In this document: piece after piece, positions 1 through 6,876 of the stretch
Position numbering within the stretch: position 1 is the first letter of the stretch
Layout of the letters: the number at the start of each line of letters is the position of its first letter
Assembly: GCA_965224245.1 (NCBI GenBank)
Contig: OZ245046.1
Location: 3,616,001 to 3,680,000 of the forward strand
Direction of reading: 5' to 3'
DNA: 64,000 bases
From: Candidatus Eiseniibacteriota bacterium
GTDB taxonomy: Bacteria; Eisenbacteria; RBG-16-71-46; CAZAMP01
Translations under genes and position numbers: made by a program
Notes under the pieces: model-generated
What the model saw: only the letters and a program-made list of their open reading frames with translations
Databases searched by the model: none
What the model was told of the DNA's origin: nothing

Positions 1-857
1 AACCCTCCCGAAAGGGCGGCGGCGCCCCGCTCGAGCCACGTGCCGAGGTTCGTCAGATAGTCCATCGACGCTCGGAGCTTCGGAGCGGACGCGAGGCTCG
101 TTCCCGCGAGCGGTGAGCCCACGAGCACGAGCTTTCCGAGCCGCGACGGATCGTCGTTCAGCACCTCGGCCCACCAGCGCGTCACGAGCCCGCCCCGGCT
201 GTGGCAGATCACATCGACCTCGGCCTCGGAGCCCTCGAAGGCTCTCTTCAGATCCACGGCGTTCAGGTATGGGTTCACCGAGACCGTCGGGTGATCGAAG
301 CTCAGAACCTCGTCGTAGTGCGCGAAGGCCGCCTGGAGGAAGGCGCTGCCCCCATCGCTCGCATGGATGCCGTCGACGAGCGCCTCGGTCTTGCTGAACG
401 TACCGTGGACGAAGAGCAAGATGCGTCCGTCGTTCGCCGCGCGGTCCACGGAAACGGACCCGCCCGGGGTCCATCGACGCATGCCCTGGTTCGGCGTCAG
501 CCTCTTGTCCAGCTTCGTGAGGGCGTCGCCGATGCGGTTCTTCTCGAGCGACTCGAACTTGAGCTGCGCGACGACGCGTCCGCCGACGCGCTGCCCTCGG
601 CGGCCCCGCCGGCGACCGGCGTGCTGCCGACCGCCGAATCCGCTTCGCCAACGGAGGACACCGTCCTCGTCCACGAGCGACATCGAGTCGACGTTGTCCG
701 ATACCCGCCCCCCCGCGCGCCTCACGTGGTGGATCGGAGTCGGTTTGAAGTCGGGAATGGTCTCGTCGGCGGAGTAGATGTCCAGTCCGTCGATGGCCCT
801 CTCGATGGTCTTCTCCACCTCGATCGGACTCAACCGATCCGCTTCACCGGTGGTCAT
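1..857 (-). CDS. Alpha/beta-hydrolase (lipase/esterase-like); 3' end runs off the window
   Basis: Not in the ORF track; translated by hand from ATG 857 (SD AAGGAGG upstream): MTTGEADRLS...RILLFVHGTFS...FDHPTVS...VDVICHSRGGLV...LVGSPLAGTSLA. Shows the oxyanion HG, the nucleophile elbow HSxGG and the GSPxxGT motif. Start overlaps the upstream stop at 844. Confidence 0.85.
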   Translation of the reverse strand, partial: MTTGEADRLSPIEVEKTIERAIDGLDIYSADETIPDFKPTPIHHVRRAGGRVSDNVDSMSLVDEDGVLRWRSGFGGRQHAGRRRGRRGQRVGGRVVAQLKFESLEKNRIGDALTKLDKRLTPNQGMRRWTPGGSVSVDRAANDGRILLFVHGTFSKTEALVDGIHASDGGSAFLQAAFAHYDEVLSFDHPTVSVNPYLNAVDLKRAFEGSEAEVDVICHSRGGLVTRWWAEVLNDDPSRLGKLVLVGSPLAGTSLASAPKLRASMDYLTNLGTWLERGAAALSGG

Positions 858-3302
858 CGAACGGCCCCTCCTTGATCGGAAGCGGCGTGACGGATGCGTC
901 GCGCGCCGTACGGACATCGATCATCGAATGAAACTCCCCCGGACTGCGGAGGTTCTCGAACCCTTCGTCGATCGCCTCCCAGAAGCTGCCGTGCGTGGTC
1001 AGCCCGACCGCCTCGATCGGGAACAGCTTGTTCTCACGCATTCGGTGGAGCACGTCTCGATAGTCCGGCTTGCCGACGACCCACCGCCGGGTCCCTTGCG
1101 TCGTGCCCGTCGAGGTGCGGAGCTCTTCCTCGTCGACGGACTTCGTGTATGTCACCTCGAAGAACTCCTTGCGGTGCTCCTCCCAACGCCAGTACCCGGC
1201 AAACGCATGTCCTTCTAGGAGAAACACGACGGGATGGATGTCCACGTATTCGAGACAAGCCGCGATGAGCAGCGCGAGATCGATACACGTGCCTCGGCCG
1301 CCGGCCAGCACCTGCGTCGGTGTCCGGAGACGTTGTCCGTCGACCGAGTACGTCGGCGGAGGGTTGATGTAGCGAACCTGGAAGTGGTGAACGATCGCCG
1401 CCCACATCGCCTGTACCTGGAGATCGACGTTCTCCATCGTTCCGTCGAGATCGCTCACGTCCACGCTCTGATAGCCGTCGAAGCCCGCGGTCCGATCGTC
1501 CGTGAGCGTCATCAGGTGCCACTGGGCCTGGTCGATGACTCGCGCGACACCCGGATCGCCCGGAAGAACGAAAGACGGCAGCCAGAGCCGATCGGCGTCG
1601 GTGTCCTTCCACTCGTCGGCCGGAAGCAACGTCACGCGTTGCGTCTCTCGGCAAACCAAGCGATCCTCGTGCCGGATCTCGATGAAGAGCGACGTCCGGA
1701 TCGGCTCCTGCACGGTCCGAATGAGATCCGACGTCAGCGGGACGCTGATCTCGCTCGCAAGGTTCAGGGGCGTCGTGTCGGCCAGGTCCCACCGTCCGCG
1801 GTAGGGGAAGCTGTCGGCTCCGACGTGGAGGTTCACCTCGATCTCGAGTCCGCGAAGCATGCCCGACCGGTTCTTGTGGAGCTTGAAGCTGTCGAACAGA
1901 CACCCGAGGCGGTTGTGCATCAGCGAGTAGTTGATCTCCCGCCGCGCGCGGATGTCGAGCTTCAGCCAATCGTACGTGTCGTTCTTGGCAACCTCGATCG
2001 GCGCCGCACGCACCTGGGACTGTCGCGTCGCGTACGTCTGTGCCTCGCCGACCTCGGCCTGGAGCAGAGCGTGATCGGACCAGAGCACGATGCCCGTACC
2101 GACCATGCGCTGCGGCGCGCGCCGCAGCGAGCGGATCGCCTCGTCGAACGCGGGGAGCGCTTGCCAGTCGGCGTTTTGATAGTCGGAGTAGAAGCCCGAT
2201 AGGAGCCGCTCGGCGAGCTCGTCGTCGATCGTGTCCTGAAACCCGATCGCGTGGCGTGCCCCGTCCGCCACCACCATCGCACAGACCCGAGAGGCGGAGT
2301 TGTAGACGTTCGCGTAGACCAGCTCGGGCGGAGCACCGCCCGCGGTCAGCGCCAACGCGAGGTGCTCCGCATCGATCTGAGCGGGCTCGCCCTTCGACCC
2401 GGTCAGCACGACACCATCGCGGCTGGACCAGCCCGTCAGGAGCGATCCGTCGGGGTCCAGATCCTCGCGCTCGCGCTCGATCACCTGGGCGGCCTGATGC
2501 GCGTCCAGTCCGGCGATGTGGATCAGGGCGGGGCTCGTATCGGCCACGTGGGCTCGGAGCTGCTCCAGCGTCGGATTGATGAGCTCGTCCAGCTCGAGTC
2601 CGAGGCTGTCGCGTACGCGCTGCCGCTCCAGATCGAACGTGAAGTAGTCGTCGAGTCCGCCCGGACAGGCCTGCACGTACAGCGCCGATCGGGTCCGGCT
2701 GGCGCGAGACTTCCGGTCGGGGGACTCGTCCCGGGCCAGGTGGCGGATCACCGTGAGTTCCCCGGTCCGACCCAGGAGCTTGCTCGTGGTGCTCAGCACG
2801 TACTCCCACGGCGCGATCCGCGCTTCCCACGCCTCGGACTCGACCGAGTACGGCACGCAGACCTCGACGAACCGCGCCTGCCGAGCCAGGCGAGAAGGTC
2901 CTCCCCCCCGGACAGCGTTTCCACTTCCCTGTGGAGCTCCTCGTGCTGCCGCCGGCGATCGGCCTGCTCCGTCCAACGAATGCGTTTGGTCAAGCGGTAG
3001 CGCCAGCGCATCGCGAGGTCCTGCAACGTTCGATCGCTGGCGATCGTCGCCGTCTGGCCATCCGAGCTTCGAAAGACGATCTCGGTTCCGATCACCGATC
3101 GCGGAGGCACGGACCCGGTAGTCGCCTTGATAACAGGTGGCTTCGTCGCGGATGTTCGAGCCTTCGCCGCCTTCTTCTTTCCGGCGGAGCGCCTCGTCGT
3201 CTTCTTCTTCGACGGGGACTTCTTCGCGCGAGGCGTCGCCTCAGCGTCGCGGTTCGATTGCCGATCCTTGTGCCGGATCGCCTTCTTCTTCTTCTTTGGC
3301 AT
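844..3302 (-). CDS. Lys-rich N-terminus + degenerate CHAT-like domain + transglutaminase/papain-like C-terminal domain; frameshifted near 2870-2910
   Basis: ORF 2793..3302 and ORF 844..2976 join through a one-base shift (about 819 aa if repaired). CHAT-like motifs: APWEYVL, LIHIAG, LVYANVYNS, AIGFQDTIDD. C-terminal motifs: YINPPPT, GQRLRTP, GTCIDLALL, GHAFAGYW. Confidence 0.7.
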
Positions 3303-6413: not shown

Positions 6414-6650
6414 TCAGATCTCCCTGATCGCCGGTTGACTGGAGGCCGGCGGAAACGATGCCCAGACCCGCGCATCCGGCGGCCGTGAGGCCTCCCGGCC
6501 CGGCGGGCGGACGATCCGGCGGATTGCCGGGGTTAGTCGAAAAGACCTGGGAGTTTACACCTGGCTGCGGGTCGTTGAACACCCATCGTATGTAGGGACT
6601 ATCCGAAGGCAGACGGGCGCCCCCGGCATGCGGGGATCGGCGGGGGTCTG

Positions 6651-6758
6651 GCACCGAGGCCGGATCCCGCACCGAGACCGGGTCCAGCACCGAGGCCGGG
6701 TCCAGCACCGAGGCCGGGTCCAGCACCGAGGCCGGGTCCAGCACCGAGGCCGGGCCCG
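6651..6758. repeat. Intergenic tandem repeat, 6 x 18 bp (GCACCGAGGCCGGGTCCA)
   Basis: Three exact central copies plus three variant copies, read directly. Confidence 0.92.
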
Positions 6759-6876
6759 GCGCCGTGGCGCCGGCGCCGGGCGGACGAGGCGCACGCATGG
6801 GTCGGCCCCGGGGCACCGGCGCCCGCGAGCGCCCGGCCGACCCCACCGGGCGTGCCGGCGGCGAACGAGACCGGTG

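Follow-up and report, generated by a model that had tools for sequence, protein, structure and literature searches.

The left end of a 64,000-nucleotide stretch of a Candidatus Eiseniibacteriota genome (G000:C1:3616001-3680000, hereafter the window) carries two overlapping minus-strand genes, gene A and gene B. The A–B module is real and conserved, and our literature searches turned up no account of it; the pair is co-inherited and occurs patchily in several phyla. As judged from sequence and a structural model, gene A encodes a CHAT/separase-type caspase fold whose catalytic dyad has been replaced family-wide, joined through an immunoglobulin (Ig)-like domain to a transglutaminase-like core with a conserved Cys-His-Glu triad, and gene B encodes a DUF7379 Ser-Asp-His hydrolase with an N-terminal extension. 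These features suggest a two-gene, protease-activated zymogen switch in which the transglutaminase-like domain of gene A would activate gene B, a reading to which we give slightly less than an even chance. The features, in window coordinates, are as follows:

3302 to 844, minus strand: gene A as a whole, in two open reading frames (2793-3302 and 844-2976)
2880..3302, minus strand: 5′ piece of gene A from the ATG at 3302; 50% identity to residues 4-146 of the homolog P0002
about 3302-3095, minus strand: Lys/Arg-rich disordered tail of gene A (residues 1-74 of the homolog model; predicted local distance difference test [pLDDT] <50)
2055..3092, minus strand: CHAT/separase-type caspase fold without catalytic dyad (structure comparison, Pfam CHAT, alignments, conservation)
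2878..2883, minus strand: site of a one-base frameshift in gene A (comparison with intact P0002 by tblastn and by reading in three frames; switch in the frame of third-position GC)
844..2880, minus strand: 3′ piece of gene A, with the dead CHAT core, Ig-like domain and transglutaminase-like core
2503-2520, minus strand: gene A motif HIAGLD (sequence)
2296-2313, minus strand: gene A motif ANVYNS (sequence)
1621..1980, minus strand: Ig-like β-sandwich (P0002 residues 444-563; Z 8-9 to several Ig/FnIII sandwiches)
865..1620, minus strand: transglutaminase-like core with Cys 1285-1287, His 1207-1209 and Glu 1012-1014 (fold match and conservation)
1285-1287, minus strand: Cys of gene A motif GTCID (sequence)
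1207-1209, minus strand: His of gene A motif GHAF (sequence)
867..873, minus strand: Shine-Dalgarno-like AAGGAGG for gene B, inside the end of gene A (sequence)
857..1 and beyond the window edge, minus strand: gene B, DUF7379 α/β hydrolase, 445 amino acids (aa) (Pfam DUF7379)
717..722, minus strand: gene B arginine cluster 1, R46-R47 in HHVRRAGGR of the pro-region (at least three Arg in 45/45 homologs)
594..614, minus strand: gene B arginine cluster 2, RRRGRRG, residues 82-88 of the pro-region, a predicted cut site (pLDDT 51-69, exposed loop)
198-200, minus strand: Ser220 of gene B motif HSRGG (sequence)

The gene A protein and its hydrolase partner

Domain analysis used a structure model of P0002, an intact homolog of 820 aa with 72% identity to gene A (mean pLDDT 79.5). 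In the model a disordered basic tail (residues 1-74) is followed by the CHAT/separase fold (73-419), the Ig sandwich (444-563) and the transglutaminase-like core (569-807). The first of these folds matches SAVED-CHAT (8tl0) with a Z score of 17.7 (183 residues aligned, root-mean-square deviation [rmsd] 2.6), DdvA (Z 14.6), Csx29 (14.3) and separase (13.7), and Foldseek supports the caspase fold at E 2.6e-7; the Pfam CHAT model (PF12770) matches gene A at E 5.7e-5, with 23.1-24.4 bits against a cut-off of 24. On this modeling, gene A is a CHAT/separase caspase fold, as an earlier note made from the letters of this DNA alone had claimed. The fold, including an N-terminal pseudo-protease subdomain, is common to SAVED-CHAT, Csx29/Craspase, DdvA and separase. 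SAVED-CHAT and DdvA keep the His-Cys dyad, whereas gene A lacks it, together with the SAVED, TPR and membrane segments. DdvA was considered as a precedent for a dead CHAT domain and dropped, since its dyad is retained according to the available text of PMC11506125.

The earlier note had also held that the dyad is lost, and the alignments agree. Hidden Markov model alignment to 8tl0 places the catalytic His at the Leu of HIAGL (2506-2508) and the catalytic Cys at the Tyr of ANVY (2302-2304). The SAVED-CHAT catalytic residues are H375 and C422 in the available text of 10.1101/2023.06.23.546230, a pair whose 47-residue spacing matches; the His retained in HIAG is a structural His, not the catalytic one. 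Among the best 120 homologs, the catalytic-His position is F, I, V or C in 115 and the catalytic-Cys position is Y, W, Q or F in 111, and none of 144 further cluster representatives has His or Cys at these positions (7 and 13 gaps). These substitutions indicate a caspase fold that is catalytically dead throughout the family. The domain nonetheless retains many invariant surface residues in the 120 homologs.

The C-terminal half tells a different story, as its catalytic residues are kept. Matches to the Ig-like domain include protein 4.2 (chain 7tvz_E, Z 8-9). For the transglutaminase-like core, Z is 9.4 to 3kd4_B (135 aligned, rmsd 3.1) and 8.3 to PNGase 2f4o, modest values obtained with the whole-protein model; Atlas matches stand at 0.90, and the Pfam Transglut_core match (E 0.0035) falls under the cut-off. 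A PDB sequence search with the Ig-transglutaminase profile gave nothing significant, the best relevant entry being CPR-C4 (E 1.1). The triad is present in nearly all homologs (Cys 120/120, His 120/120, Glu 119/120) and in 93 of 95 full-length cluster representatives. By conservation, then, this half appears to be the intact Cys enzyme that the earlier note had proposed, a transglutaminase-like core with its triad. The note had further pointed to a kinship with the N terminus of DUF4011-type helicases. Indeed, the Ig-transglutaminase half matches positions 1-246 of the 1903-aa NCBIfam ProA model (E 2.4e-54) and the N termini of 11 DUF4011 helicases; a search for other long fusions of the region found none, which is weak evidence of absence. 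Prometheus ProA and the DUF4011-DUF3320 helicases thus have in common with gene A the Ig plus transglutaminase-like region, in which most of them have the corresponding Cys, His and Glu/Asp, whereas gene A lacks the DUF4011, helicase and nuclease domains and scores 184 bits against a ProA cut-off of 1500. Compared with 14 outgroup domains, the gene A family has added conserved acidic residues (D569, D571, D604, D605, D/E642 and D/E690), with D569 in 108 of 114 members vs. 0/14 and D604 in 114 of 114 vs. 0/14. The genome also encodes a second, distant Ig-transglutaminase protein of 502 aa (G000:C1:4648461-4649042; L003:1255-2763) that keeps the Cys, His and Glu; its tail is helical and Clp-N-like by eye, with no Pfam match.

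The ATG of gene B (857) lies upstream of the gene A stop (844-846), giving the 14-nt overlap reported in the earlier note, and the AAGGAGG is 9 nt upstream of that ATG. All five motifs singled out there (HIAGLD, ANVYNS, GTCID, GHAF and HSRGG) are present on the minus strand where it had put them. Sequence left of the window, to which the note had pointed as a check, shows that gene B continues for 480 nt, to G000:C1:3615520, and contains Asp391 and His425. These two residues and Ser220 form the triad, each member of which is conserved in 45/45 homologs. Gene B matches DUF7379 (PF24096) at E 1.5e-34 (120 bits, cut-off 33), and residues about 122-445 adopt a predicted lipase/thioesterase fold, with Z 19.1 to 6wpx, the propeptide form of lipase BlEst2, and 17.1 to the palmitoyl-protein thioesterase PPT2; the corresponding Pfam match has E 2.9e-4. 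Sequence and fold together assign gene B as a DUF7379 Ser-Asp-His hydrolase with an N-terminal extension. The extension, comprising the first 120 residues, contains the two Arg clusters, cluster 2 in a low-confidence exposed loop of the model. At least three Arg are found in cluster 1 of 45/45 homologs and in cluster 2 of 44/45. By a stricter rule, four Arg in seven residues, all 47 of 47 pro-regions contain one cluster and 31 contain two.

Recent work has shown that hydrolase zymogens activated by a protease, there an active caspase, act as death effectors. In the LcCaspase/LcHydrolase system, per the available text of Evans et al. 2025 (PMC12642450), the caspase cleaves two R/G sites of an α/β-hydrolase zymogen, which yields cell-killing fragments of unknown substrate; a term search of that paper found no mention of transglutaminase or CHAT. 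The A–B module likewise links a caspase-fold gene to an α/β hydrolase with two Arg motifs in exposed N-terminal segments, a comparison made by fold, linkage and motifs rather than by homology. However, here the caspase fold is of CHAT type, dead, and fused to a transglutaminase-like domain, the motifs are poly-Arg instead of single R/G, there is no fused sensor domain, and gene B has 445 aa compared with about 33 kDa for LcHydrolase (summed from the fragment sizes in the available text). Because its caspase is dead, the module resembles the caspase–hydrolase zymogen module and is not a member of it. In our favored reading, the dead caspase fold would dock gene B, the transglutaminase-like Cys-His-Glu domain would cut it at the Arg clusters, and cleavage would release a lipase-like effector whose likely action, during phage attack or another stress, is membrane damage or cell killing. 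We infer the docking, the cleavage, the trigger, the substrate of gene B and the defense role. Counted in favor are the tight linkage of the pair, the two Arg clusters of gene B, the transglutaminase-like triad as the only intact catalytic set of gene A, the acidic residues of that lobe that are rare in the outgroup, and Arg-rich linkers in other proteins beside gene A, namely a caspase (L078) and HEAT-hydrolases (L005 and L006). If this is correct, the work would be done in the gene A family by a transglutaminase-fold domain, next to a caspase that is a pseudo-enzyme.

Linkage, spread and partners of the pair

Gene A homologs number 1170 at E ≤ 0.001 among the candidates scored. Linkage was examined at the best 80 of 247 genomic loci encoding gene A and the best 80 of 456 metagenome loci encoding gene B, both being sets of best matches in which typical members are favored. 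Gene B directly follows gene A at 66 of the 80 genomic loci, with 6 cut by contig ends and 8 lacking gene B. Conversely, where at least 300 nt of room is available, gene A lies directly upstream of gene B at 62 of 65 metagenome loci (3 lack it; the other 15 have <300 nt), and both gene A domains are seen in 49 of those 62. Gene A also adjoins gene B at 11/11 fetched loci from the genus Bradyrhizobium, though some of these genomes probably overlap the A-side sample. The pair that the earlier note had seen once is thus a conserved neighborhood. The interpretation in that note is supported in part, for the fold, the lost dyad, the Cys enzyme, the helicase kinship and the pairing. Start and stop overlap by -1, -4 or -8 in 30 of 57 intact pairs. 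A third gene conserved family-wide beside A–B was looked for and not found. A convergent gene of ~210 aa without a Pfam match lies directly after gene B at L052:7815-8444 and 11 other loci in Alphaproteobacteria and Acidobacteriota.

The distribution is broad and patchy. The 80 gene A loci come from at least seven phyla (Acidobacteriota 32, Pseudomonadota 22, Gemmatimonadota 12, Planctomycetota 7 and a few others). Within the phylum of the window, full-length gene A occurs in 3 of 151 genomes, with gene B in the same 3, and it occurs in 0/20 closer relatives; a close gene B is found in 12 of 201 genomes of the genus Bradyrhizobium. The divergence of gene A tracks that of gene B, with an identity correlation of r 0.91 and a shared nearest neighbor in 33/47, the kin not being independent. 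This co-divergence, the mostly ordinary genes of the neighborhoods and the match of gene B to palmitoyl-protein thioesterases (Z 17.1; Pfam E 2.9e-4) would also suit a nondefense pathway in stress or regulation, in which an acyl or amide group is put on or taken off proteins by the transglutaminase-like domain, a reaction that the thioesterase-like gene B reverses or completes. We judge this unlikely, as the patchy spread, the conserved exposed Arg loops and the tie of gene B relatives to intact caspase-like proteases (see next section) favor proteolytic control.

Gene A is not always a single gene. At 7 alphaproteobacterial loci and at 4 of the 11 fetched Bradyrhizobium-genus loci, the dead CHAT and the Ig-transglutaminase region are clean, separate genes, and therefore the two halves are separable units that stay together. 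The split loci are L052:3999-6412, L039, L053, L064, L067, L068, L070, L183, L186, L188 and L189; the break falls at the linker, and the two genes mostly overlap by 4 nt. Apart from one other alphaproteobacterium, these loci are from Bradyrhizobium, and fused and split forms occur within one genus. At L055 and L059:4889-5884, gene A is reduced to a 5′-truncated Ig-transglutaminase remnant beside an intact gene B. Gene B is intact where gene A is broken or missing in the window, L059 and L136, as would be expected for a latent rather than a constitutive toxin.

Other partners are seen at a few loci. At two loci, L078:9626-14947 and L071, the place of gene B after gene A is taken by a caspase that is intact (FSGHG, ISDAC) and has Arg-rich linkers, together with a different α/β hydrolase. 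At L005:7827-9267, L006, L019 and L029, a HEAT-plus-α/β-hydrolase gene and a HEAT-repeat gene lie upstream of gene A; the HEAT-hydrolase linker is poly-Arg in L005 and L006, and in L019 the upstream HEAT-hydrolase is the only partner that remains. L071, L078 and L019 could be taken to mean that gene A senses or activates upstream of partners that can be swapped, gene B being the commonest cargo, and that it acts perhaps through a protease cascade and not directly on the hydrolase. We consider this distinctly improbable: such loci number only 3 of 74, compared with 66 with a gene B partner, and no second protease is conserved in A–B operons.

Relatives of the hydrolase and the defense context

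A quick tree of 63 hydrolase cores, rooted by choice on 8 distant DUF7379 rows, places the 52 A-associated hydrolases in one group (SH-aLRT [Shimodaira–Hasegawa-like approximate likelihood ratio test] 99) that also holds those of L113, L116 and L136. At L113:87-7233, the operon of a close gene B relative also encodes an nSTAND1-HEAT-TPR protein and a CHAT-SIR2-like protein with an intact CHAT, an arrangement that looks like a conventional sensor–protease–hydrolase defense operon, and at L116 a close relative lies beside an intact CHAT. These hydrolases, only two cases, lack poly-Arg clusters and have single RG-type motifs instead. In the tree, each of the 8 distant DUF7379 hydrolases is fused to, or adjoins, an intact CHAT (His plus Cys), and its pro-region contains RRG/TRG-type motifs; of the 20 distant Bradyrhizobium DUF7379 matches, 6 were fetched. 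Gene B therefore has the core, and a related pro-region, of the DUF7379–CHAT fusions and pairs (PF24096 with PF12770, PF24062 and PF24063), whereas their CHAT keeps His and Cys and the Ig-transglutaminase domain is absent from the CHAT-linked distant proteins examined. The simplest reading of these relationships is that the gene B lineage is under caspase-type proteolytic control and that gene A replaced the active protease, an order of events that depends on the assumed root of the tree.

A bolder reading would be a catalytic hand-over. An ancestral CHAT-protease/lipase-zymogen defense pair would have lost its caspase chemistry, kept the fold as a docking or sensing arm, and recruited the DUF4011/Prometheus N-terminal enzyme as a poly-arginine-specific activating protease. 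We put this forward tentatively, at about one chance in three. If true, it would add a new protease class to bacterial immunity and give a function to the N-terminal region of ProA. Transglutaminase-like peptidases are listed as effectors in other conflict systems in the available text of Kaur et al. 2021 (PMC8195603). The available text of Kaur et al. 2020 (PMC7159879) describes caspase and hydrolase as invariably paired in VMAP systems and proposes inactive caspases as dominant-negative or peptide-binding domains; in two supplements of that paper the terms "transglut," "BTLCP" and "DUF4011" are absent.

The proposal for inactive caspases would fit another arrangement, in which the dead CHAT guards or acts as a decoy. 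It would shield the Arg loops of gene B or soak up phage anti-caspase proteins, and the freed gene B would be cut by another, active CHAT or caspase of the cell, with the transglutaminase-like domain doing a different job such as self-processing. The many invariant surface residues of the dead domain and its occurrence as its own gene would fit, as would the intact CHAT genes beside the gene B relatives in L113 and L116. In addition, a further 15 proteins of the Eiseniibacteriota genome, each about 950-1200 aa long, have a CHAT domain, and in 10 of these the dyad motifs look intact. Loss of a strict inhibitor should, however, be poorly tolerated, and gene B is intact where gene A is frameshifted (window), 5′-truncated (L059) or absent (L136); moreover, this arrangement leaves unexplained the transglutaminase-like triad kept beside gene B in every full locus. 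We give it a low probability.

Several observations weigh against the zymogen switch that we favor. The transglutaminase fold includes amidases, deamidases and acyltransferases, and thus does not imply proteolysis. RG is found in only 15 of 45 first Arg clusters (32/45 second clusters). Clusters by the 4-in-7 rule are rare outside the pro-regions, numbering 6 in 14,036 core residues and occurring in 5 of 157 neighbor proteins, which speaks for the switch, but the neighbor background was filtered by a composition score that disfavors Arg and so is biased low. Gene A stands without gene B at 8 of the 74 loci with room, and 6 of these 8 genomes, all of them metagenome-assembled, gave no gene B match at all. 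A typical A–B operon encodes no sensor domain. PADLOC has no model for gene A or gene B, and of 256 nearest neighbors at 75 loci, 28 match some PADLOC model, mostly generic methyltransferases, sigma-54 activators and helicases, a count that has no control set. A neighbor that we judged to be clearly defense or toxin–antitoxin is present at only 5 of the 75 loci: Septu (L044), PDC-M19 (L042), AbiEi (L053), a QatA-like NTPase (L006) and a PD-DExK nuclease (L017). Defense neighbors are weak support at best for a defense role, of which the patchy spread and the L113 operon are better hints. No phage-borne copies of gene A or B were found in viral contigs, and a viral fold search gave nothing clear.

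Literature searches, which did not cover subscription journals or bioRxiv supplements, found related systems only, with no paper on the dead CHAT-Ig-transglutaminase plus hydrolase architecture and none naming DUF7379. The module offers a compact two- or three-gene system, present in cultured Bradyrhizobium (fused at L076, split into three genes at L052), for testing the roles of bacterial pseudo-caspases and of the unstudied Cys enzyme with which Prometheus-type helicases begin.

The copy in the window and its surroundings

Gene A in the window is interrupted. Its 5′ piece contains the basic tail and, after it, the start of the CHAT/separase N-subdomain (MRWRY...RW), and its frame reads past the break site to a stop at 2793. 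With P0002 as the reference for the frameshift, alignment to the first frame ends at ~2883 and alignment to the second begins at 2880. Third-position GC changes frame at ~2880, with 0.80 and 0.85 in the coding parts and 0.42 in the noncoding overlap. Identical gap-free short-read contigs cover the site in 3 of 4 runs, which represent at most two samples of one study, possibly the assembly source, and whose contigs drop rare alleles. Because these contigs carry the same sequence across the site, the sampled population probably does have the frameshift. We considered and rejected a long-read error in the G7 homopolymer (2903-2909), since the break lies ~20 nt downstream of the run; the short-read contigs also disfavor it. 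A GTG at 2856 in the 3′ piece would yield a 670-aa product (P0001). The copy here is thus probably not a working full-length example, and the module in this genome is probably inactive or reduced to a truncated restart product, which makes it a poor experimental choice. Two short segments of this GC-rich part of the window, at 2864-2885 (22 nt with one mismatch) and 2943-2960 (18 nt), match a 6.6-6.7 kb contig present in all four runs, probably by chance.

The flanks of the pair are ordinary, with a gene for a secreted FlgD-Ig-tailed protein upstream and a converging histidine kinase gene downstream. A sigma-70 promoter search found none. Farther along the window, in the 6628-6760 region between glutamate dehydrogenase and PEP-synthase-like genes, is a short tandem repeat that reads PASVLD five times in open reading frame translations.

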